From positions 1-46,669 of the IMG/VR virus record IMGVR_UViG_3300036853_000124: a DNA stretch of 46,669 nt, one strand, 5' to 3'. This DNA comes from a virus (lineage: Duplodnaviria; Caudoviricetes). Positions within the stretch are counted from its first letter, which is position 1; each line of letters starts with the position of its first letter. Of this stretch, positions 1-46,669 are shown one piece after another. Position numbers and translations under genes: made by a program. The notes beneath the pieces were generated by a model. That model ran no database searches and was not told the origin of the DNA. It saw nothing but the letters and a program-made list of their open reading frames with translations.

Positions 1-254
1 GGTGCGCGCCTGGCAGTCCTGGGCCCCGCACCTGCGCACGGTGGCGTGGCGGGGTACTCCGGACCGTAGGCGGCAACTGAGCGGCGCGGCGGACGTGTAC
101 GTGGTCAGCTACGACACGGCAACCCGCGACATCGGCACCGTGGCCAAGCCGGGCGCGCTGCTCAAGATGGCGCCGGCCAGCCTCGTGCTCGACGAGTGCC
201 ACCTGATCAAGAACCCGAACAGCAAGCGGTCCACCCACGTGCGCCGGCTGGCTC
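1..254. repeat. Terminal direct repeat, copy 1 (circular overlap with 46416-46669)
   Basis: Identical to 46416-46669 except C127 vs A46542 (CGC/CGA, both Arg). Confidence 0.95.
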
Positions 255-1279
255 ACAAGGCGGGCATCGTCGTCGAGTTAAGTGGTACACCGATCACCCA
301 CGGACCTGACGACCTATGGCCGGCGCTCAACGCGATGAACCCCAACGCCTGGCCGGCTCGGGAGCGCTATGTCAACCGGTACTGCGAGGTAGTTTCGGGG
401 GACTACGGGGACAAGGTCATCGGCCTGGACCCGGCGCACGAAGACGAGTTCCGCACGGCCCTGCTCGGCCAGCACCGCCGGGTAGCCAAGGCGGACGTGC
501 TAGATCAGTTGCCGCCCAAGGTGTACAGCACCCGGGAGGTCGAATTGCCGGCGGCGTACCGCAAGAGCTACGACGACCTGGAGCGGGATATGTACGCCCG
601 CCTGCCGGACGGCCAGGAGCTCGGCGCCGGTCTGATCCTCACGGTCATGGGGCAGCTGTCGCTGATCGCCAGTGCGGCGGCCGACGTCGAGGTCACCTAC
701 GAGAAGGACCCCGAGACCGGACTCGACAAGCCCCACTACCACGTCGAGCTGAAGGCTCCGAGCTGGAAGGTGGACGCGCTGCTAGAGGTGCTGGACGAGC
801 GGCCCGACAAGCAGACGGTGGTGTTCGCTCCGTCCAAGCAACTGGTCATGCTCGCCGGGCAGGCCGCCACCGCCGCGGGGTACCGGGTCGGCTACATCGT
901 CGGCGGGCAGTCGCCCAAGCAACGCACGGCCACAGTGGACAGCTTCCAGGCGGGGGAGCTGGACGTCGTCTGTGTCACCACCCAGGCCGGGGGAGTAGGC
1001 ATCACCCTTACCGCGGCGAGCACGGCTGTGTTCTTGCAGAGACCTTGGTCCCTCGTCGACGCACTCCAAGCCGAGGACCGTCTACATAGGATCGGGTCGG
1101 AGATCCACGAGTCCATCGAGATCATCGACATCGTGGCGTCCAACACGATCGACAGCCGGGTACGCTCGGTGCTCCGTGAGAAGGCCGGTCAGTTGGCCGA
1201 CCTAGTCCAGGACCCGAGGATCGTGGCCGAGCTACTTGGCGGCCAGTCCGTTACCCAGCGAGGAAAGCAGGCGGCATGA
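2..1279 (+). CDS. SNF2/SF2-type DNA helicase, C-terminal piece (true start ATG 46360 across the circular junction; 444 aa)
   Basis: Motif II LVLDECH, motif III LSGTP, motif [10 protein letters not shown], motif [12 protein letters not shown]; no Walker A in this ORF. Confidence 0.9.
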
Positions 1280-1610: not shown

Positions 1611-1644
1611 GGTTGACTTACACGCAGTCTGCGTGTAGGTTAGG
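1611..1644 (+). promoter_or_regulatory. SigA-type promoter with palindromic operator in the spacer (copy 1)
   Basis: TTGACT(1613-18), 17 nt, TAGGTT(1636-41); palindrome TACACGCAG-T-CTGCGTGTA at 1619-1637; 32/34 identical to reverse complement of 5080-5113. Confidence 0.85.
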
Positions 1645-1647
1645 GGC

Positions 1648-1686
1648 ATGACGAACAAGCGCCAACATGGCTCAGCGGGATGCTAA
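1648..1686 (+). CDS. Possible leaderless 12-aa leader peptide MTNKRQHGSAGC
   Basis: ATG 6 nt after the -10 box; stop overlaps the start region of the GT2 gene. Confidence 0.4.
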   Translation: MTNKRQHGSAGC

Positions 1687-2726
1687 TCGCGTTGGTACCG
1701 GCCCATAACGAAGCCCGCAATATCACCAACGCGATTAGCGGCCTGGAGACCCAGTCGGTTGCCCCGGACAAGATCGTCGTCGTGACAGACAACTGCACTG
1801 ACGACACTGCCGCCGTAGCCCAGGCGCTAGGTGCGGAGGTGTTCGAGACCGTCGACAATGGACACAAGAAGGCGGGTGCGCTTAACCAGGCGCTCGCGTG
1901 GCTGCTGCCCCAGTTGTCACCAGACGACGTGATCCTGGTGCAAGACGCTGACAGCGTCCTAGACGCGCCATTCATCGCCACGGGGCTGGACTACCTAGCC
2001 AAAGGCTTTGACGCCGTCGGTGGCGTGTTCAGGGGCGAAGCGGGGCACGGCCTACTGGGGATGCTCCAGCGCAACGAGTACATGCGGTACGCCCGCGAGC
2101 TGTCGCGCAAGCCTCGCGTGATGGTGCTGTCCGGTACGGCGTCGATGTTCGCGGTCGCCACGCTCCAGGCGGTCAGCCAGGCGCGGCATAGTGGTGAAGT
2201 GCCGGAGGGTGACGGAGTCTATGACACCACAGCACTCACCGAGGACAATGAACTGACGCTGGCCTTGAAGACCTTGGGACGCAGGCTCGCGAGTCCGGCC
2301 GAGTGTGGCGTGAGTACCGAACTCATGCCGACGTGGCGTGCGTTGTGGAAGCAGCGTCTCCGCTGGCAACGAGGGGCACTGGAGAACATCAGGCGCTACG
2401 GCCTAAGCCGGGTCACCCTGCCCTACTTCGCGCAACAAGTGGGTATGGCTATCGGTGTGCTCGCAATGACTCTTTACCTCGGCATGTCACTGACTGCCTT
2501 TGTCCTGCTGGACGCTCCGTTCACTCTCAGTCCGTTCTGGACAGCCGTAGGTCTGGTGTTCGTGGCGGAGCGAGTAGCCACTGTCAAGGGTCGGGCGGCT
2601 AAGGCCCTGGCCTTCCCACTGCTGATCGAGATGGCATACGACCTGTTCCAGATGGGCGTGTTCCTAGCAAGCGTTACGCAGATCGTCTTTAGGCGTGAGG
2701 CCAAATGGTCTCACTTTGTGCAGTAG
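1680..2726 (+). CDS. Processive family 2 glycosyltransferase (PgaC/IcaA/cellulose synthase-like), membrane-bound
   Basis: VPAHNE, DNCTD, KAGALN, DADS (DxD), TED and QRLRW (QxxRW) motifs; C-terminal hydrophobic helices. Confidence 0.9.
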   Translation: MLIALVPAHNEARNITNAISGLETQSVAPDKIVVVTDNCTDDTAAVAQALGAEVFETVDNGHKKAGALNQALAWLLPQLSPDDVILVQDADSVLDAPFIATGLDYLAKGFDAVGGVFRGEAGHGLLGMLQRNEYMRYARELSRKPRVMVLSGTASMFAVATLQAVSQARHSGEVPEGDGVYDTTALTEDNELTLALKTLGRRLASPAECGVSTELMPTWRALWKQRLRWQRGALENIRRYGLSRVTLPYFAQQVGMAIGVLAMTLYLGMSLTAFVLLDAPFTLSPFWTAVGLVFVAERVATVKGRAAKALAFPLLIEMAYDLFQMGVFLASVTQIVFRREAKWSHFVQ

Positions 2727-2740
2727 AGGTTGGGGTCACA

Positions 2741-2893
2741 ATGTACGGAAAGCTTACTGCTAGTACCGGCGGCGCCCTGGCGTGGACCGGCTTCCAGTCC
2801 CTATGGTTGGTCGTCGCGGGGTTGACCCTAGTGTTCGCAGGGTTAGCGATCATGAAGCTGATGCCCAAGCGTGACAAGGAGAGTAAGCGATGA
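2741..2893 (+). CDS. Small single-pass membrane protein (50 aa), likely partner of the glycosyltransferase
   Basis: MYGKLTASTGGALAWTG, one TM segment, basic tail; RBS-like GAGGTTGGGG. Confidence 0.65.
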   Translation: MYGKLTASTGGALAWTGFQSLWLVVAGLTLVFAGLAIMKLMPKRDKESKR

Positions 2894-2917
2894 GCGGTCA
2901 GTTTGGGTCCTTGCTGC
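2881..2917 (+). repeat. 37-bp direct repeat across a stop/start junction, copy 1
   Basis: GAGTAAGCGATGAGCGGTCAGTTTGGGTCCTTGCTGC; 36/37 identical to 3036-3072. Confidence 0.9.
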
Positions 2918-3048
2918 GGGATTACTGGCGGCTAGTCACTACGTACCCGCTGTGGTTCGGGACGCTCCCGGGCATAGTCCTCTGGTACACCGTACACAGT
3001 GAGGACGAACGGGACGAGATGGTGCGTAAGGCACTGAGTAAGCGATGA
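2890..3048 (+). CDS. Small hypothetical protein (52 aa, MSGQFGSLLRDYWRLV...)
   Basis: Translated by hand; ATGA overlaps at both ends; not in ORF track. Confidence 0.6.
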   Translation: MSGQFGSLLRDYWRLVTTYPLWFGTLPGIVLWYTVHSEDERDEMVRKALSKR

Positions 3049-3072
3049 GCGGTCAGTTTGGGTCCATGCTGC
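3036..3072 (+). repeat. 37-bp direct repeat, copy 2
   Basis: Matches 2881-2917. Confidence 0.9.
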
Positions 3073-3161
3073 TGGGGTCGGCCCTGACCGTGGGTGGACT
3101 CTACGCCGGCTGGTACGGCACGCGTCTGGTCGAGCGCTGGCAGGCCCGGAGGAGCAAGTGA
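3045..3161 (+). CDS. Small membrane protein (38 aa, MSGQFGSMLLGSALTVGG...)
   Basis: Translated by hand; ATGA/GTGA coupling; hydrophobic stretch. Confidence 0.6.
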   Translation: MSGQFGSMLLGSALTVGGLYAGWYGTRLVERWQARRSK

Positions 3162-3634
3162 TCCGGATCCTTGGCATCGACCCGGGCGGGACCACGGGGT
3201 TCGCAGACCTCATCGGTTGGCCGGGCTACTACCACGTTGAACCGACCCAACTCCGCGGCCGGGACACCGGAGACATGGACCCTGTTGGCGCCGTCAAGGC
3301 GATGCTCGGCATCCGGACGTACACCGTCGTCGCCATGGAGCGGTTCGTGGTGTCCCGTCGGGCCGGTCGGTCCAAGACGTCCGGAGCGGGGGAGCAGGCC
3401 CGGAACATCATCGGTGCCGTCACCTCCCTCTGCCAGGAGGCCGGCGTGCCCGTCGTGCTGCGGTCGGCTAGTCAGGTCAAGGCCTGGGCCACCGACAATC
3501 GCCTTGAAGCGGCCGGCCTACTCGCTCCCACCCGCGGCCTGCCCCACGCCCGGGACGCCACCCGCCACGCTCTGTACGCCGCTGTCTGGGACTGCGGACT
3601 ACCCGACCCACTGTCCGGAAGGGACAACGCATGA
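3158..3634 (+). CDS. RuvC-like Holliday junction resolvase
   Basis: ILGIDPGGTTG, VAMERF, HARDA acidic catalytic motifs. Confidence 0.8.
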   Translation: MIRILGIDPGGTTGFADLIGWPGYYHVEPTQLRGRDTGDMDPVGAVKAMLGIRTYTVVAMERFVVSRRAGRSKTSGAGEQARNIIGAVTSLCQEAGVPVVLRSASQVKAWATDNRLEAAGLLAPTRGLPHARDATRHALYAAVWDCGLPDPLSGRDNA

Positions 3635-3726
3635 CGTACGTAGACCTAATCCTCCTCCAGGTGGGGCTGATCGGCTGGTCCCTGTTTGGGATCATGATCT
3701 ACCTGCGCCGAAGGGACAACTCTTGA
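3631..3726 (+). CDS. Small membrane protein (31 aa, MTYVDLILLQVGLIGWSLFGIMIYLRRRDNS)
   Basis: Translated by hand; one TM helix plus basic tail; coupled both sides. Confidence 0.6.
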   Translation: MTYVDLILLQVGLIGWSLFGIMIYLRRRDNS

Positions 3727-4145
3727 GCGACAACCCACAGGACTACAACTGGACGAGCTCGGGCAAGGCCTTCGTCACCAAGGACTCAGGCGCCCGGCAG
3801 GAGTTCCCCTCGGGCAGCGTCCGCGACACCAGCGTGGGCAAGCCCCGGCCCGACCTGATCTCGCCACGAGCCACCCTTCGCCACGCCGCGCTGATGTCTC
3901 GTGGCGCGGAGAGGTACGGGGAGCGGAACTGGGAGCTGGGCCAGCCGGTCAGCCGGTACCTGGAGAGCCTCCTACGGCACATCCTGATGTATCAGCTTGG
4001 GGAGCGGACCGAGGACCACCTCGCCGCCGCCCGGTTCAACGTCGACGGGATGATCCACTTCGAGGGCACCTCGTTCGACGACATCAACGGCGGCGAGCCA
4101 CTGACTGTGGACTGGCCGAACGAAGAGCCGGAGGCGCAGTCATGA
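3723..4145 (+). CDS. DUF5664 dATP/dGTP diphosphohydrolase-domain protein
   Basis: KDSGARQEFPSGSVRD...GKPRPDLI...GAERYGERNWELG...SLLRH...DHLAAARFN; TTG start overlapping upstream stop. Confidence 0.8.
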   Translation: MSDNPQDYNWTSSGKAFVTKDSGARQEFPSGSVRDTSVGKPRPDLISPRATLRHAALMSRGAERYGERNWELGQPVSRYLESLLRHILMYQLGERTEDHLAAARFNVDGMIHFEGTSFDDINGGEPLTVDWPNEEPEAQS

Positions 4146-4300
4146 CGGTCACTGTCAAGTTGGTTAACGGAGACTCTCGTACCCACAAGCTCCGACATGG
4201 CGGGTGGGTGGTTGACGTCAACGGAGTCTTGCATGTGCGGGACGGCAACCACGTCATCCAGGCGAGCTACGCACCGGGTGTATGGGCGGAGGTCCAGTGA
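4142..4300 (+). CDS. Hypothetical protein (52 aa, MTVTVKLVNGDSRTHKL...)
   Basis: Translated by hand; coupled both sides. Confidence 0.6.
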   Translation: MTVTVKLVNGDSRTHKLRHGGWVVDVNGVLHVRDGNHVIQASYAPGVWAEVQ

Positions 4301-4686
4301 CCCGCAAGTGGGAAGACGTCAAGGCCGAGAAGGCGAGGATCGACAGGAAGAACGGGCGTGTGCGCAGGCTCTACATCGCCGGCCCGATGACCGGCCTGCC
4401 CGAGCAGAACTTCCCGGCCTTCCGCGCGGCGGCGGCCCAGCTCGTCGAGGCGGGCTACGAGGTGACCGACCCCTCGACCCTCGGCGAGCACGACGACTGG
4501 GCCTGGGCCGACTACCTCAAGCGGGACCTGCCCGAGCTACTGAAGTGTGACGGTGTGGCCGTGCTCGACGGCTGGAGCGAAAGCAAGGGTGCGTCCATTG
4601 AGGTGCGAGTGGCCGACGAGCTGGGCATGCAGGTCTGGTCGGTCCTGTCGTGGGTGGTCAACGCCCCTCGGCTACTCGCGGCTTAG
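4297..4686 (+). CDS. DUF4406 / nucleoside deoxyribosyltransferase-like protein
   Basis: YIAGPMTG...NFPAF...WADYLKRDL...CD...GWSESKGASIE. Confidence 0.8.
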   Translation: MTRKWEDVKAEKARIDRKNGRVRRLYIAGPMTGLPEQNFPAFRAAAAQLVEAGYEVTDPSTLGEHDDWAWADYLKRDLPELLKCDGVAVLDGWSESKGASIEVRVADELGMQVWSVLSWVVNAPRLLAA

Positions 4687-5075
4687 TCCAGCGCCTCTAC
4701 CGGGACCCTGAGCGTGGTGATGACGTGGCTGCCTCCAACCCGGGTGTCCCGCTTCAGGACCGCGACCGTCCTGAGCGGACCGTTATCGCCGTGCTCGACG
4801 AGGTAGTGGTCACCCCCAAGCCGCTTCACCAGGGCGTGTAGGGAGCGGAACCGGTACTGGGTCTGATCACCGTAGGGCTCAAACGCTGTGTACATCTCGG
4901 TCTGTCCTGTCAGGTCGGTACGGGCGCCCTTCCCCAGGCGGGGGATCGCCAGCACCTGGTGGGTCGGGTAGCCCCGAACCTGCCGGATGCCGTGGTCGGA
5001 GAGGAGGCGCCGGGCGCTAGCGGGGGTGATCCCGAAGTGCTCGGCGATCTCTTCGATGGTCATCAGTTCGTTCAT
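4683..5075 (-). CDS. Helix-turn-helix DNA-binding protein (probably leaderless)
   Basis: MTIEEIAEHFGITPASARRLL HTH and RLGKGARTDL motif; ATG 7 nt after the -10 box of promoter copy 2. Confidence 0.75.
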   Translation of the reverse strand: MNELMTIEEIAEHFGITPASARRLLSDHGIRQVRGYPTHQVLAIPRLGKGARTDLTGQTEMYTAFEPYGDQTQYRFRSLHALVKRLGGDHYLVEHGDNGPLRTVAVLKRDTRVGGSHVITTLRVPVEALD

Positions 5076-5079
5076 TTGT

Positions 5080-5113
5080 CCTAACCTACACGCAGTCTGC
5101 GTGCAAGTCAACC
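5080..5113 (-). promoter_or_regulatory. SigA-type promoter with palindromic operator (copy 2), driving the HTH gene
   Basis: Minus strand GGTTGACTTGCACGCAGACTGCGTGTAGGTTAGG. Confidence 0.85.
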
Positions 5114-5147: not shown

Positions 5148-8100
5148 ATGCCCGAAACCAGCCCGTCACCCGTTGACAACGCCATCCGCCTGGTCGTGGC
5201 CGGCGCCACCGTGTTCCCGGTCCGCCTCGCCCTCGACGCCGACGGCAAGAAGAAGCCCGCCTACCCCGGCTCCTGGGACCAGTACCAGATGACCGCGGCC
5301 ACCGCCGGAGAGATCGCCACTGCCGGGGCCTACGGGGTCGACTGTGGACGGTCCGGTGTGGTCTACGTGGACCTCGACCGCAAGGCTGACATCGACGGCG
5401 TCGAGCTGTGGAAGTCACGCGGCCTGCCGGTCAGCCCCTTCGTCGTCAAGACCCAGTCGGGCGGCGAGCACCACGCCTTCCGTGCCCCGACCGAGCCCGT
5501 CGGCAACGCCTGCTTCAAGACCCTGGGCGTGGATGTGCGTGGTGCCGGTGGCCACGTCTTCGGTCCAGGCTCGACGGTCGAGGGGGGTGGGTCCTACGCC
5601 CTGGTTGGCTCTCTGCCGGCCTCTCTCGCCGACCTACCCGAGTATCCGGCCGACGCCGTAGAGGCGCTCAGGGCCGAGGACAAGGCCAACAAGCGGGCTC
5701 AGGCGGCCGAGCGCCGGCCAGAGGCGTTCACCCCGGCCCCTCCCGGCTCAGGCACCGTCGAGCAGTGCGAGCACCGCGTCCGCGAGCAGATGGCCATCCT
5801 CGAGGAGAGCGTGTCCGGCGGGTTCAACGACGAGCTCAACCGGCTGTGCTTCCTCGTGGGTCAGCTCTGCCGGGCTGAGAACGATCACTGGGATGAACCC
5901 CGGTACGCCGTCGAGGACGTCCGCGACCGGGTCATCGAGCTCTGCGAGGAGTCCGAGGCTATCGGCCCCCTCGACGCCACCGACTGGGGCACGATCAACT
6001 CCAGCGGCGCTCAGTCCGGACTCGACTCGCCGTACAACCCCGGGGGGCCGACCGAGGCCGAGCTGTCCTGGTCGGACATGATCACGGTCGAGGCACCCGC
6101 CCCGATCAACGCCGACCCCCTCGCCGGGCTGTACGTCGTCGAGGACCAGCCGGCAGTTGCCGGGCCGCCCCGCTCCAGGCTCTGGGGCAACATGCTCGAC
6201 GTCGACCGGCTCAAGGGCGACCCGCCCCCTACCCCGCCGTTCGTGCTCGAGGGGCTGCTCCGTGAGGGAGAGCTCGCCGCGCTGGTCGCCGGGGCCGGGG
6301 CGGGCAAGAGCCTGCTCACCTTCGAGCGGGCGCTCCAGGCCATCTCGGTCGGCCGCCGGGTCATCTACTTCGACGCGGAGAACTCCGAGCACGAGATCCA
6401 CACCCGGGTGGCGGCCTATGGCTTCAACGCCGACGAGGCCGACCTGACGGGGCTGGAGTACCTGTCGTTCCCCTCACTGAGCCTGGATGCCGAGGCCGAC
6501 GCCCGGGAGCTGCTGACCTTCGTCGCCGAGCTGACCGTGACCAAAGGCAAGATCGACGCGGTCATCTTCGACACGGCCTCCCGCTTCATCGCAGGGGTCG
6601 AGAACGACGCGGCGCCGTGGCTGGCCATGTACAGGCTGGCCCTGCTCCCGCTCAAGCGGGCTGGTATCGCCGTGCTCAGGCTCGACCACATGGGCAAGGA
6701 CGAGACCAAGGGTGCCCGAGGCAACTCGGCCAAGTCCGGGGACGTCGACACGATCTGGGAGCTCCAGGCGGGCAAGCCTCCTCCTGGCAAGAAGGTCCCG
6801 GTACGGGTCGAGCTGACCTGCACCAAGCAGCGATCGGGCACGCACGCTCAGTACACAGTGCTCAGTCGCGACGTCGACGCCAATGGCGTCCTCGGACACC
6901 GCGTCGACGGGTCGATGGGCGACGGAGTCATGCCGACGATGGCCCCACCCCGGGTGTCTCCGGTGGACGATGTGGTGGCCGTGCTGGACCGCTCGGGGTG
7001 CCCCAACGACACCGGTCGGCCGGCCGCTCAGGACTGGCTCCGGGACCGTGGGGTGCCCCTCCCGAAGGCAGGCACGACCGAGTGGGCAGCCGCCATCCGG
7101 GAACGCAAATCCCGGCCCGTTCAAGATCCAGTAGCGCCTCCCGAACAAGATCCACATGGCGCCGAATCGGGCACTGACGAGCTGTCCTGGGAGCTGTCCC
7201 AGAGATCAACAAAAACCAAGATCAGGACAGCTGTTCCGGACAGCTCAGGACAGCTCCAGGACAGCCAGGACAGTTTGGCTGTTTGTGCTGGTCAGGCTGT
7301 CCCGGGCGCTGTTCCCATGATCGACTGTTCGGGGGCCACAGGCACCGTTGTCCCCGCCCTGGGGCTGTCTATAGGACAGCCCAGGCAGGACAGCCTCAAA
7401 AATGATCATGAGGACGGTGCAGCCACTGGAGATGAAACTGAGGGGGGTACGCCACCCCCGGCCAAGATCAAGAAGGGGAGGCTCACTGACGAGGAGAAGG
7501 CCGAGCGGAAGCTGGCTCAGACCGAGGCTCGCCGAGCGGCGGCTGCGGAGAAGCGAGCGCTGGCTCTCGCCGAGGCGTCCGGCCCCCGGGTCGAGCTCCC
7601 CGCGGTAGTCGACCGGGCGGGCACCATCCGAGAGCTGACCCTCGCGGAGGCCATGCACACGGTGTCCGCCGCGCACGAGCGCTCCGGCTCGCTGACGGTG
7701 GACGTGGAGACGACCGGCCGACCGATGGGTCACCGGGAGTACGCACTCCGCACGGTCCAGCTCGGTGACGCGCTGGAAGCAGTCGTGTTCGATGCAACCC
7801 AGCACGCCGCCGCGGTGAAGACCCTTCTCGGTGAGGCGGACAAGCTCCACGCGTTCAGTGCCAGTGCCGACCTGGTCCCGCTCATCGCGGCGGGGCTGGC
7901 CGATGAGTCCATCTGGGCTCGGATGCTCGACGTGGTGATCCCGGCCAAGCTGGCGGACCCCTCATCCACGGGCTCCAGCGCCGACGGCCTGAAGGACTTG
8001 TCCGGGGACATCCTGGGCAAGCTGTCTGTCTCGCCGGCCGCGGAGGTCGACAAGAACGCGATGTTCAAGGCGGCTGGCTGGCTGGTTCAGACCAAGTTCG

Positions 8101-9419
8101 ACACGCCTACCGAGCGCAATGGTTGGGCCCAGGTAGACCCGAACAGTTCGACCATGGTCCGCTACGCGGCCTGTGACGTGCTGGACGGCGCCGCCCTTGC
8201 CCTCAAGCTCCCGTGGCCGGCACCCGCCCTACTGGAGCGGGAACGGGTCACCGCCGAGATGACCTCTCGGGTGGCCCATCAGAGCCGCGGGCTGAAGCTC
8301 GACGCGGCCAAGGTTGCCGAGCTGTTCGACGCGCAGACCGCCGCTAAGGCTGAAGCCGCCAAGCGGGTAGCCGGGCAGGGTGTCACCCCGGGCAGTGATG
8401 CCCAGGTGGCTGCCAAGCTCACCGAGATGGGCGTGGTGCTACCTAGGACCAAGCCAAGCAAGACCCACCCCACCGGACAACCAAGCGCGGCGGAGGGGGC
8501 TATCGAGCCGCTGCTCCACCAGGAAGGACCGTGGCAACCGCTGGTACGCGCGGTGCTCGACTACCGCGAGCACTCCAACCGCCTGAGCCTGTTCCTGGGC
8601 CCGTGGCGGGAGCTGATCGAGAACGGTGACGGCCGTGCCCGGCCCACGGTGTACACACTGGAGGCCAAGACCGGACGCATGTCCTGCCGACGCCCGAACT
8701 TCCAGCAAGTGCCGAAGGTCGGCGGGTTCCGAGCCTGTGTCGTTACCGACCCGGGGTACCTCGGCATCTCGGCCGACTTCTCCGGTGTGGAGGTTCGCAC
8801 CGGCGCCGCGCTGTCCGGGGACACCCAGCTCGCAGCCATGATCGAGAGAGAGGACGAACTCGGCAAGGAGCACGGCCTCCTCTGGACGATCGCACGTGAG
8901 GTGTGGGGCCCAGACGCCACCAAGGCCGAGTACTACGCGGTCAAGGGGGTCGTCTACGGACGCTTCTACGGCGGCGGGGTGGACACCCTGGCGGACAACG
9001 CTGGCATCTCCAAGACCCTGGCAGCCTCCACCCTCGAAGTACTCGACTCCATGACGCCAACGCTGGCGCGGTGGTCGCGGGCGCTCGATCAGGGCGTCAA
9101 GGCGGGCCGGACGATGTTCGAGACCTACTCGGGCCGAACCATCCACCTGGATCCGAAGGTCACCTACAAGGCGGGCAACTACGCCATCCAAGGGACCGCA
9201 AGGGAGCTGTTGGTGGACGGACTTATGCGCTGGCGGGAGACCCGCTGGGGCACGTGCACACTCCTTCCGGTCCACGACGAGTTGATCGTGATGGTGCCGG
9301 CGGACGAGGCCAAGGAGGCGACCGCCGAGCTGGTCCGGTGCATGGAGACCGAGCTCTACGGAGTCAAGATCAAGGTCGAGGCCGACGAGCCTTGGACCGC
9401 CTGGCCAGACGCTGCTTAG
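5148..9419 (+). CDS. Fused bifunctional primase-polymerase (AEP) / RecA-type AAA helicase / family A DNA polymerase with 3'-5' exonuclease domain
   Basis: N-term VDLD, TQSGGEH, DVRGAGGHV; Walker A AGAGAGKS, Walker B VIFDT, GARGNSA; exo DVETTG and YAACD; PolA TGRMS, PNFQQVP, ADFSGVE, K...YG..YG, NYAIQG, PVHDE; RBS AGGAGG. Confidence 0.9.
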   Translation: MPETSPSPVDNAIRLVVAGATVFPVRLALDADGKKKPAYPGSWDQYQMTAATAGEIATAGAYGVDCGRSGVVYVDLDRKADIDGVELWKSRGLPVSPFVVKTQSGGEHHAFRAPTEPVGNACFKTLGVDVRGAGGHVFGPGSTVEGGGSYALVGSLPASLADLPEYPADAVEALRAEDKANKRAQAAERRPEAFTPAPPGSGTVEQCEHRVREQMAILEESVSGGFNDELNRLCFLVGQLCRAENDHWDEPRYAVEDVRDRVIELCEESEAIGPLDATDWGTINSSGAQSGLDSPYNPGGPTEAELSWSDMITVEAPAPINADPLAGLYVVEDQPAVAGPPRSRLWGNMLDVDRLKGDPPPTPPFVLEGLLREGELAALVAGAGAGKSLLTFERALQAISVGRRVIYFDAENSEHEIHTRVAAYGFNADEADLTGLEYLSFPSLSLDAEADARELLTFVAELTVTKGKIDAVIFDTASRFIAGVENDAAPWLAMYRLALLPLKRAGIAVLRLDHMGKDETKGARGNSAKSGDVDTIWELQAGKPPPGKKVPVRVELTCTKQRSGTHAQYTVLSRDVDANGVLGHRVDGSMGDGVMPTMAPPRVSPVDDVVAVLDRSGCPNDTGRPAAQDWLRDRGVPLPKAGTTEWAAAIRERKSRPVQDPVAPPEQDPHGAESGTDELSWELSQRSTKTKIRTAVPDSSGQLQDSQDSLAVCAGQAVPGAVPMIDCSGATGTVVPALGLSIGQPRQDSLKNDHEDGAATGDETEGGTPPPAKIKKGRLTDEEKAERKLAQTEARRAAAAEKRALALAEASGPRVELPAVVDRAGTIRELTLAEAMHTVSAAHERSGSLTVDVETTGRPMGHREYALRTVQLGDALEAVVFDATQHAAAVKTLLGEADKLHAFSASADLVPLIAAGLADESIWARMLDVVIPAKLADPSSTGSSADGLKDLSGDILGKLSVSPAAEVDKNAMFKAAGWLVQTKFDTPTERNGWAQVDPNSSTMVRYAACDVLDGAALALKLPWPAPALLERERVTAEMTSRVAHQSRGLKLDAAKVAELFDAQTAAKAEAAKRVAGQGVTPGSDAQVAAKLTEMGVVLPRTKPSKTHPTGQPSAAEGAIEPLLHQEGPWQPLVRAVLDYREHSNRLSLFLGPWRELIENGDGRARPTVYTLEAKTGRMSCRRPNFQQVPKVGGFRACVVTDPGYLGISADFSGVEVRTGAALSGDTQLAAMIEREDELGKEHGLLWTIAREVWGPDATKAEYYAVKGVVYGRFYGGGVDTLADNAGISKTLAASTLEVLDSMTPTLARWSRALDQGVKAGRTMFETYSGRTIHLDPKVTYKAGNYAIQGTARELLVDGLMRWRETRWGTCTLLPVHDELIVMVPADEAKEATAELVRCMETELYGVKIKVEADEPWTAWPDAA
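7181..7394. repeat. Iteron-like GGACAG(C) array with A-rich core; candidate replication origin
   Basis: GGACAG at 7225, 7238, 7248, 7259, 7268, 7374, 7388; GCTGTCC at 7181, 7193, 7296; A-rich 7201-7223. Confidence 0.6.
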
Positions 9420-44097: not shown

Positions 44098-44835
44098 GTG
44101 ACCACACCTCCCGTTGACCCCGCGGCCTTCCAGGCGTTCCTCGCCCAGCTCGCCGCACAGCAGGGCACCACGCCGGCCGCCGGCATTCCCGTGACCCCGG
44201 CCGCGCCTGTCGCGGAGCTGGAGCCCACCGTGGACGTCGACATCTCAGACGTGCTCGGTGGCTCGGCGTATGGCCCGAACCTGCTCGACAAGAACGACCC
44301 GATCGGGACCACGTTCACCGGCACCCTGGCCCAGAAGGTCACCGCCAAGCAGGACCGGGACTTCAAGACCAAGCAGCCGAAGTTCTACGACGATGGCAAG
44401 ACCCCGGTCCCGTTCCTCACCGTCGCGCTGGACGTGCCGGTGAGCGAGCGTCACCCCGACGGCCGCGCCACCTGGTACGCCCGAGGCAAGGACATCAGGG
44501 AGCTCGACCGGGCGGCAGTCGAGGCCGGCGTTCCGCGTGAGGTCATCAAGGCGGGCCTGGACATCGGCGCGATCCTGACCATCAAGTACGAGCGGGACCA
44601 AGTCAACCCTCAGTACCCGGCCAGCAACCCCGCGAAGATCCGCTCGGTCACGTACACCCGACCGGGACAGCCCGCGACGCAGGCGGCTCCTGTCGCTGCT
44701 CCGGCAGTTGCTCCCGTTCAGGCTGTCGCTCCGGTCACCGCACCCGTGGCCCCGGCGGCAGGTCCGGCCCGACCCGAGGGACTCACCGACGCACAGTACG
44801 CGGTGTTCCTGAAGGCGCTCGGCCAGGCTGCCTGA
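44098..44835 (+). CDS. Single-stranded DNA-binding protein (putative)
   Basis: GTTFTG...KQDRDFKTKQPKFYDDG pattern; Ala/Pro tail; follows exonuclease. Confidence 0.65.
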   Translation: MTTPPVDPAAFQAFLAQLAAQQGTTPAAGIPVTPAAPVAELEPTVDVDISDVLGGSAYGPNLLDKNDPIGTTFTGTLAQKVTAKQDRDFKTKQPKFYDDGKTPVPFLTVALDVPVSERHPDGRATWYARGKDIRELDRAAVEAGVPREVIKAGLDIGAILTIKYERDQVNPQYPASNPAKIRSVTYTRPGQPATQAAPVAAPAVAPVQAVAPVTAPVAPAAGPARPEGLTDAQYAVFLKALGQAA

Positions 44836-44847
44836 CCAACCGGCCAT

Positions 44848-44897
44848 AGCACGAAGGCCCCCGCTGTCCACGTCGGACGGTTGGGGGCCTTCGTGCT
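44848..44897 (+). terminator. Long GC stem-loop
   Basis: AGCACGAAGGCCCCC...GGGGGCCTTCGTGCT 15-bp stem. Confidence 0.65.
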
Positions 44898-44920
44898 CTC
44901 CACGACGAGAGGGAGTAGCC

Positions 44921-45565
44921 GTGACGAGACCCAGACTGCTCGACCTGTTCTGCTGTGCCGGGGGTGCCGGCATGGGCTACCACCGCGCGGGCTTCGACAT
45001 CGTCGGCGTGGACATCGATCCTCAGCCTCATTACCCCTTTGAGTTCCACCAGGCCGACGCAATCGAGTTCGCCAAGGAGCACGGCCACGAGTTCGACGCG
45101 ATCCACGCCAGTCCTCCGTGTCAGGCATTCAGCGCGTATCGACGCCGCGGCGCTGGCGTGGGGGCTACCGCGCTCAACCTGATCCCGGCTACTCGTAAGG
45201 CTCTGTCCCAGTTCGACATGCCAACAGTCATAGAGAACGTCGAGACCGCCCGCGCGGAACTCGTAGGGCCAGTCCGGATGTGCGGGTCCAGCTTCGCCCT
45301 CGACGTACGCCGGCATCGGTTGTTCGAAAGCAACGTCGGCCTGACTACACCCGCCTGCGCCCACAACTGGCAGACGCCCCGATTCCCACCAGCCACCAAC
45401 CGTACCAACCTACGGCGAACGGTTGAGGTTGGCGTCTACCGCATCCCCCTTCCGGTCCAGCAGAAGGCTATGGGAATCGACTGGATGACCTTGAGCGAGT
45501 TGAGCCAGGCCATCCCGCCCGCCTACACCGAGTACCTCGGCCGTCAAGTGTTGGCCCAGCTATGA
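44921..45565 (+). CDS. DNA cytosine-C5 methyltransferase (short, orphan)
   Basis: LDLFCCAGG (motif I), SPPCQ (IV), IENV (VI), RRHRLF (VIII). Confidence 0.85.
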   Translation: MTRPRLLDLFCCAGGAGMGYHRAGFDIVGVDIDPQPHYPFEFHQADAIEFAKEHGHEFDAIHASPPCQAFSAYRRRGAGVGATALNLIPATRKALSQFDMPTVIENVETARAELVGPVRMCGSSFALDVRRHRLFESNVGLTTPACAHNWQTPRFPPATNRTNLRRTVEVGVYRIPLPVQQKAMGIDWMTLSELSQAIPPAYTEYLGRQVLAQL

Positions 45566-46008
45566 GGTCCGTACCCATCCACGGTGAGCTCACCGCCGAC
45601 GGCACCCGGGTCGTGCTGATGGCCGCGGGGATGTTCGCCGACGACGTCGAGCGGGTCGGCCGGCAACTCGGCCTGCTCACCCCGACGCCGAAGCCCACCG
45701 AGCCCAAGGGCGGCATCAGCTTCCCGATCTCCTGGGCGCTGTGCGTGCAGCTGGCCATGACGTTCGGCTCGGCCTGGCACCCCGGCCCCCGGCTCAAGGC
45801 TTGGGTGCTAGACCAAGTCCAAGCCCGCACCGCCGAGTCGGCCCCCCTCACGATCTCGCTGCCTGCCGGCAAGGTGCCCCGGCCGTACCAAGTCGACGGC
45901 GCCCAGCTGGTAGCGAACTCCGGCAGTTGCCTGATCACCGACGAACCCGGCACCGGCAAGACGATCACAACCATTCTCGGCCTGCTAGAACGGGCCTCAA
46001 CGTCCTGA
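45562..46008 (+). CDS. SNF2/SF2-type helicase, N-terminal piece (Q motif and Walker A)
   Basis: PRPYQ and LITDEPGTGKT; stop 15 codons after GKT. Confidence 0.85.
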   Translation: MRSVPIHGELTADGTRVVLMAAGMFADDVERVGRQLGLLTPTPKPTEPKGGISFPISWALCVQLAMTFGSAWHPGPRLKAWVLDQVQARTAESAPLTISLPAGKVPRPYQVDGAQLVANSGSCLITDEPGTGKTITTILGLLERASTS

Positions 46009-46024
46009 AGGGACAGGCCATTCC

Positions 46025-46363
46025 ATGACTTTCGAGCACCTGACAGCGACGAGGGCCCTAGCTGACATCACCCTGGAGGAGGGGGGATCACACTGGCTCG
46101 TGGTCGTTCGGAGAAAAGACGACACCACTGGAGCGCACGAGTTCCGCGCCGAGCTGCCAGTTTGTCGCGGAGCCCGAGACGGCCACTGGTTGGGACGGGA
46201 ACCATGCTCGTGTGGAGGTTCACGCAGATGGGGGAAGCGTACTACGTCTGTGAAGGCGGAGCTCGCGCACGGGGACCAGCACTGTCATTGCTGGCACCTC
46301 CCCGCCGTGCGCGAATTTGTCCGCGCAGTACTCAAGACCTACTCAGCCGAGCGTGTTGCATGA
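46025..46363 (+). CDS. SWIM-like zinc-finger protein inserted in the helicase gene
   Basis: CSC-x(n)-CWHLPAV fits CxCx(n)CxH; RBS-like AAGGGA; ATGA overlap with helicase C-piece. Confidence 0.6.
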   Translation: MTFEHLTATRALADITLEEGGSHWLVVVRRKDDTTGAHEFRAELPVCRGARDGHWLGREPCSCGGSRRWGKRTTSVKAELAHGDQHCHCWHLPAVREFVRAVLKTYSAERVA

Positions 46364-46669
46364 CTCCCACCTTCCCCGTCGTCGTCATCTGCCCAGCGTC
46401 CGTCATGGACCCCTGGGTGCGCGCCTGGCAGTCCTGGGCCCCGCACCTGCGCACGGTGGCGTGGCGGGGTACTCCGGACCGTAGGCGGCAACTGAGCGGC
46501 GCGGCGGACGTGTACGTGGTCAGCTACGACACGGCAACCCGAGACATCGGCACCGTGGCCAAGCCGGGCGCGCTGCTCAAGATGGCGCCGGCCAGCCTCG
46601 TGCTCGACGAGTGCCACCTGATCAAGAACCCGAACAGCAAGCGGTCCACCCACGTGCGCCGGCTGGCTC
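46360..46669 (+). CDS. Start of helicase C-terminal piece (continues at 2-1279)
   Basis: MTPTFPVVVICPASVMDPWVRAW = motif Ia; in frame with ORF 2-1279. Confidence 0.85.
   Translation, partial: MTPTFPVVVICPASVMDPWVRAWQSWAPHLRTVAWRGTPDRRRQLSGAADVYVVSYDTATRDIGTVAKPGALLKMAPASLVLDECHLIKNPNSKRSTHVRRLA
46416..46669. repeat. Terminal direct repeat, copy 2
   Basis: Matches 1-254. Confidence 0.95.

Follow-up and report, generated by a model that had tools for sequence, protein, structure and literature searches.

A split SNF2-type helicase in a soil phage genome, probably a two-chain ATPase with a passenger gene in its gap

The window, the whole stretch of 46,669 nucleotides analysed here, holds a soil phage genome that forms a 46,415-bp circle; bases 1–254 repeat positions 46416–46669, and this 254-bp overlap of the two ends contains one mismatch. 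It encodes temperate phage genes (terminase, portal, capsid, tape measure, integrase and DNA polymerase). Because the closest helicase relatives in named genomes belong to Actinomycetota, we infer that the host is an actinobacterium. Across the point where the circle closes lies an SNF2-type SF2 ATPase whose features (Q, Walker A, Ia, DExH, III, V and VI; SNF2-rel and Helicase_C) are all present, distributed over two open reading frames (Table 1). The N half ends in ERASTS, 14 residues past the GKT of Walker A. The C half begins with MTPTFP, runs for 445 aa over the circular junction without an internal stop and carries motifs Ia, II (DECH), III (SGTP), V and VI. Between them lies a gene for a 112-aa protein, with a stop that forms an ATGA overlap with the C-half start codon. 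The two halves share one frame, and the 354-nt gap that separates them contains two in-frame TGA codons. An initial annotation had read the locus in this way, and its coordinates, its view that no motif is lost and that both pieces are open, its in-frame stops, and the ribosome-binding site (AGGGA) and ATGA overlap that it gave the 112-aa ORF are all borne out. The helicase frame is also open for 98 codons beneath this gene (46066–46359), probably by chance in GC-rich DNA. Intact phage SNF2-type helicases (PHROG 62; PF00176 and PF00271) have the same motifs as the split pair but are single chains of about 590 aa. The split helicase is 45–76% identical to hundreds of single-chain prophage proteins of Actinomycetota, and the intact relative P0023 matches solved SNF2 proteins with a best E of 2e-31.

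Table 1. Features of the helicase locus, in window coordinates.
Feature	Position	Strand	Remarks
C5 methyltransferase	44921..45565	+	ATGA-coupled to the N half; second variable slot
Helicase N half, 148 aa	45562..46008	+	Q motif, Walker A and the following helix, then TGA
Q motif PRPYQ	45877..45891	+	From the sequence
Walker A DEPGTGKT	45940..45963	+	From the sequence
N-half stop and 16-nt spacer	46006..46024	+	SD-like AGGGA
Likely passenger gene, 112 aa, small unnamed Cys/His family	46025..46363	+	Follows AGGGA
Helicase C half, start	46360..46669	+	MTPTFPVVVICPASV; motifs Ia and II; ATGA-coupled to the passenger stop
Helicase C half, remainder	1..1279	+	Motifs III–VI; beyond the circular junction

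The arrangement is a sound piece of assembly. A Logan contig of 46,445 bp (depth 47) reproduces window positions 44500–46669 with 0 differences and continues over the circular junction in register, which supports the insert joints and the circular junction, support that the initial annotation had made a condition of its claim, and rules out an assembly artefact as the cause of the split. This contig probably derives from the source sample and is then not sample-independent, so it tests the assembly and not the biology. A search of Logan contigs, with 74% of the run read, found no joint that bypasses the insert. At window position 127 the Logan contig reads A and the window C; the C is therefore likely an end error. 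A search for promoters and terminators over 44700–46669 found none, and no RNA data set was listed as holding the sequence.

The most informative relative is L025, an IMG/VR contig with halves 90% (N) and about 89% (C) identical to those of the window. Its break falls at the same codon, with ERASTS followed by a stop and a C half beginning MTSTFPVVVICP. The spacer has equal length and the same first 8 bases, and the ATGA overlap is the same. The L025 gap of 756 nt, however, encodes a 246-aa D12-class (Dam-type) adenine methyltransferase in place of the 112-aa gene. The two gaps are unrelated and almost fully coding, and have in common their first about 11 nt and their last 2. The gene upstream of the N half is also swapped, L025 carrying a different C5 methyltransferase. 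The search for other genomes with the insert at this site, which the initial annotation had suggested, yielded one with the same break and a methyltransferase rather than the insert. Since an identical break holds unrelated cargo, the split is independent of the 112-aa gene, which is likely a passenger, neither a subunit of the helicase nor the cause of the split, as judged from these two sequences. A 7-bp repeat, CATGACT, at both gene starts in the window was considered as a target duplication and rejected; the repeat includes the ATG, and L025 lacks it.

Comparison of the window with L025 also bears on decay. By the Nei–Gojobori method, applied to this one pair (dS 0.41–0.49), dN/dS is 0.195 for the N half (148 codons) and 0.16 for the C half (442 codons). 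These values support purifying selection on both halves and are not the relaxed ones of the decaying pseudogene that the initial annotation had considered. Over the first 270 nt of the C half the two copies are 91–98% identical, against 62–80% beyond. A recent exchange of the junction could explain this, and some of the dN/dS signal may be older than the split.

The 112-aa insert has a GC3 of 0.66, compared with 0.87–0.91 in the helicase halves, and few relatives: four remote ones by HMMER among 1.84 billion representatives, one by cluster look-up and one in locus L064, where the homologue stands on its own, about 2 kb upstream of a helicase that is intact. A word search found nothing beyond the insert itself, and viral contigs held no relative; GenBank phages gave nothing significant and genomes one weak short match. 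A seven-row alignment of the family has invariant C47, C61, H82, H86, C87, H88 and H91. The initial annotation had proposed a SWIM-like zinc finger, for which CxCxnCxH is the signature and which is known in bacterial SWI2/SNF2 ATPases (PMC10236294). The literal pattern stands (C61-S-C63 ... C89-W-H91); the assignment is not supported, as two of its four ligands, C63 and C89, occur in the window copy only and are absent from 6 of 6 homologues, and Pfam SWIM (PF04434) gave no match to the insert at E up to 1–10. A language-model search led from the insert to SWIM-named phage clusters at 0.92 (the SWIM name being on 11% of one cluster), and the same search with the homologue P0005 gave no SWIM lead. 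A fold model had low confidence (pLDDT 52), and a fold search gave no Z of 5 or more. No nuclease family matched in the 5–7 members scanned against Pfam, PHROGs and NCBIfam. The insert thus appears likely, from its conserved residues, to be a small unnamed Cys/His phage protein that binds metal; a SWIM relationship is not supported, although a distant link is possible.

Breaks at this position recur in other proteins. Among 12 N-half-like proteins of 81–259 aa, eight (the window included) end 13–21 residues after GKT and four are longer fragments. A ninth N-only protein, P0138, has the same end point, and within its Walker A lies a 267-aa HNH intein (residues about 129–395) that keeps its splice residues; two kinds of interruption, a stand-alone N half and an HNH intein, are thereby found within one helicase gene. 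Eight of the nine N-only proteins stop 13–15 residues past GKT. On the other side of the break, the best 120 of 846 C-half matches comprise the window's own partial call, eight that start just before motif Ia and 111 with an N part. The nine C-only proteins start 3–6 residues ahead of the motif Ia proline, with the start at the same position in the eight relatives. Motifs II, III, V and VI are intact in all eight, and the C-only halves, 63–76% identical to the L025 copy, retain all motifs. Three N/C pairs (P0012/P0020, P0010/P0022 and P0014/P0028) match in the size of both members' longest contig (43,599, 16,453 and 11,745 bp), and one size-matched pair groups congruently in the N and C trees. 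These pairs are known from proteins alone and size matching can mislead: P0030 and L042 are both 2,058 bp yet different, a coincidental match. Four C-only and two N-only proteins come from contigs shorter than 2.3 kb and may be fragments.

At the DNA level, 109 records collapse to 70 distinct loci: two split with a gene in the gap, two with frameshift-type breaks, one with an in-frame insertion and 65 ordinary. Split forms, at 2 of these 70, are in the minority. A junction-pattern search found L025 alone in viral contigs and 0 in genomes, P0008 and P0020 as queries gave no further contig, and none of 37 metagenome loci was split. The frameshift-type breaks fall just after Walker A (L056, about 2830; L057, about 710) and may be sequencing errors. 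The in-frame insertion, in L035/L101 and P0035/P0105, places about 36 aa (108 nt) with a CxC in the loop where the split occurs. Twelve intact relatives (L061, L072, L077, L088, L094, L099, L102, L112, L114, L116, L117 and L119) have the Walker A variant DEPRTGK[TS].

The distribution of split forms does not follow simple descent. A single clade is rejected for the 8 C halves (36 rows; AU p 7e-7; 27 of the 111 intact rows used, with P0126 kept out of the tested clade as uncertain) and for the 9 N halves (38 rows; AU p 1e-9), and the intact P0021 nests among split forms. Thus, the split has more than one origin, was passed on by recombination or has been undone; N/C breaks at this loop occur in at least two lineages. 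Three split lineages are an unremarkable 36–40% identical over residues 1–100 and 88–92% over residues 120–145, the latter exceeding the identity of at least 98.6% of 109 intact proteins, in a residue window that was picked post hoc and with a signal that rests on few residues. A Cys two residues before the LITDEPG Asp region (GSCL) is present in 6 of 9 split N halves and 1 of 109 intact proteins. Shared junction ancestry and convergent packing changes both fit this likeness; a windowed ranking on the C side gave no clean junction signal. The break may go back to an original homing endonuclease that was later lost, to a junction spread by recombination or to repeated fission.

How the two halves might work together was approached by alignment and structural models. 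Joined N and C halves were aligned to intact homologues, as the initial annotation had suggested. The loop at the break is 15–57 residues long (median 20) in 109 intact proteins, and the N tail plus C head of the split forms make 21–22 residues; hence nothing was lost and no tails were added. An AF2 model of the L025 N half, a 90% identical copy, has a pLDDT of 93, with a small alpha/beta domain at about residues 1–90 and a last helix (133–147) that ends at the stop; alone, it leaves the Walker A strand unpaired. Foldseek found no match to the N domain at E 0.001 or better; the domain may be HARP-like. A model of the L025 N and C halves as a complex scored 0.88, and the best of three controls 0.00, at a mark reached by 116 of 157 solved pairs and 2 of 215 mismatched pairs. 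Runs agreed in at least 94% of contacts, with a partner pLDDT of at least 85. N residues 122–125 (the Walker A strand) contact C residues 108–112, and N residues 134–142 (the last helix) contact C residues 7, 22–27 and 79–81. The multimer model envisaged in the initial annotation thus predicts an interlocking interface for the L025 pair. In the alignment behind it, 40 of 48 rows are intact proteins, and split-gene halves can pass by likeness to solved folds; given this likeness to SNF2 folds and the mostly intact rows, the score speaks for compatibility and not for binding.

The conserved break, the purifying selection, the recurrence and the predicted interface favour the genes-in-pieces helicase of the initial annotation; the split is real and recurrent, and the helicase is probably functional. 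In the mechanism that we propose, the helicase is broken in the variable loop between the helix after Walker A and motif Ia. All three genes would be read from one early transcript, and translation of the C half would restart by ATGA coupling. Both halves would be made as separate chains that fold together non-covalently at 1:1, the N half supplying the Walker A strand and the next helix, which are predicted to pack on the C half and so make RecA lobe 1 complete, so that the ATP site is completed across chains. The cargo in the gap would be swapped by recombination in the conserved flanks. On the strength of the models and the conserved break, we consider it quite probable that this is a two-chain SNF2-type ATPase that assembles non-covalently and that the gap gene is a passenger. 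A bolder reading, possible but doubtful, makes the broken loop a mobile gene-capture slot with exchangeable, non-nuclease cargo such as DNA methyltransferase. The module would consist of the last ~26 N codons, the stop and SD spacer, the cargo and the ATGA start of the C half; it would move between diverged helicase alleles by recombination, and the cargo would be kept because the C half is translationally coupled to it.

Other explanations would deprive the pair of a joint function. The helicase might be dispensable, its split alleles being dead or dying genes broken at a hotspot that tolerates gene insertion. Ordinary spacing in 65 of the 70 distinct loci shows that intact alleles prevail, split forms do not group as a single clade, the flank of the junction may have been exchanged of late and two loci have frameshift-type breaks nearby; however, such decay is made improbable by a dN/dS of 0.16–0.20, by the retention of all motifs in C halves that share only 63–76% identity with that of L025, by N-half ends and C-half starts that stay in register from lineage to lineage, and by the full HNH intein, splice residues included, in one N half. 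Separate duties for the halves, for example an ATPase-dead, DNA-binding C half and an N half with a role of its own, would suit the confidently modelled domain of the N half. Yet the pair retains the Q motif, Walker A and B and motif VI, a set that is sensible only if its members work together. In the model of the N half by itself the Walker A strand has no partner, and in the complex model it touches the C half; we consider separate duties very unlikely. Two further explanations give the 112-aa gene an active part, and both had been put forward in the initial annotation. The gene might be a selfish element of a new kind, having caused the split as a nuclease or homing factor and now spreading it. 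Its foreign codon use, its conserved Cys/His cluster and the junction-proximal residues common to split lineages, as co-conversion would give, speak for this. It is very improbable, with the same break in L025 that lacks the insert, a free-standing homologue about 2 kb upstream of the intact helicase in L064 and no match to a nuclease family in the 5–7 members scanned (Pfam, PHROGs, NCBIfam). The least probable of all the explanations is a three-subunit enzyme with its halves bridged by a SWIM zinc-finger protein: the insert is missing from the L025 gap, ligands C63 and C89 vary and Pfam SWIM does not match, against the literal CxC...CxH pattern, the language-model neighbours named SWIM-type and the SWIM domains described in bacterial SWI2/SNF2 ATPases (PMC10236294).

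It is also highly improbable that splicing of the RNA, ribosomal bypassing or recoding of a stop codon yields one continuous protein. The length of each gap (354 and 756 nt) is divisible by three, and the last N codon of L025, TCC, recurs in frame at C codon 3. The window, though, has CCC at C codon 3, and the shared phase of the halves follows from one 16-nt spacer and the ATGA overlap. Sequence common to the two gaps is confined to about 11 initial and 2 final nt, and the L025 gap has seven in-frame stops, TAA included. No Rfam intron family, including group I and group II intron cores, was found in the gap. Pfam found no intein N or C parts at the inner ends, no extra sequence follows ERASTS or precedes MTPTFP, and the C halves keep their own start codon. 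A stable hairpin is not conserved between the two junctions, where z is −0.16 for the window and −2.5 for L025. Bypassing is known for gaps of about 50 nt (bioRxiv 10.1101/2022.08.31.505936), and codons of the gene 60 bypass type match near the C start in L025 only, at gaps of 354 and 756 nt. Recoding of TGA was considered and rejected; TGA is an ordinary stop here and the L025 gap has TAA.

The two-chain reading has several known parallels. In Aeromonas phage Aeh1, nrdA is split by mobE into two ORFs with demonstrated activity (PMC2988022), and the resulting NrdA needs insertion-derived tails (PMC3045599). There, as proposed here, one enzyme is encoded as two ORFs around a gene and assembles non-covalently without splicing. 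The Aeh1 gap gene is an HNH homing endonuclease, whereas here no recognisable nuclease is present and the cargo varies; the tails are essential there and none are added here; function was shown there, and we infer it here. Closest in logic is the gp43A/B split, whose inserts differ between phages 25 and 44RR; gp43 of phage 25 is active (PMC2988022). Related phages carry one split with different intervening sequences, and the insert may have entered an already split gene. However, gp43 is a B-family polymerase of T4-like phages, with inserts that are a seg endonuclease or untranslated sequence. T4 topoisomerase with mobA is also described among such genes (PMC2988022), and MobA is associated with repeated splitting at one site, endonuclease loss and re-fusion (bioRxiv 10.1101/2022.08.31.505936). 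Topoisomerase 39/60 with MobA thus offers a way to understand how split alleles could be scattered and the intact P0021 nest among them, but it has extensions of about 44 aa and a 50-nt bypass cassette, neither of which is present here, and the two gaps seen here hold no endonuclease. Finally, fractured phage replication genes, including the gp41 helicase, are rejoined by split inteins (PMC2677866). They too are two ORFs around a free-standing gene, and differ in their intein halves, of which there are none here. On its sequence features, the present case appears to work like genes in pieces but without their endonuclease, tail and intein features. A literature search, in which subscription journals were mostly not covered, found no phage SNF2 helicase split at this site, and the accessible portions of PMC3322345 and bioRxiv 10.1101/2025.01.02.630785 hold nothing on this split.

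If the halves assemble, they make up a natural two-chain SNF2 motor with an ATP site built from two gene products without intein or tails, the Q motif and Walker A being on one chain and Walker B and the arginine finger on the other. The split marks a natural break point in RecA lobe 1 and offers a simple test system for split ATPase assembly. It also suggests that a phage gene in pieces can persist without the endonuclease presumed to have split it, its gap taken over by ordinary cargo. Halves of this kind will be labelled pseudogenes by annotation pipelines.

The region of the window beyond the C half has features of its own. A 34-bp element occurs in two inverted copies with 2 mismatches, at 1611–1644 (+) and about 5080–5113 (−), flanking 1680–5000. 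With TTGACT and TAGGTT hexamers around a palindrome, it looks like a promoter with an operator. Between the copies lie a family 2 glycosyltransferase followed by a small hydrophobic ORF (1680–2893), which are also in L025 and L076, and an ORF with a match to dATP/dGTP pyrophosphohydrolase profiles (3171–4145). Downstream, positions 5148–9419 form a single ORF of 1423 aa with a primase/helicase-like middle and a family A polymerase C-terminal part.
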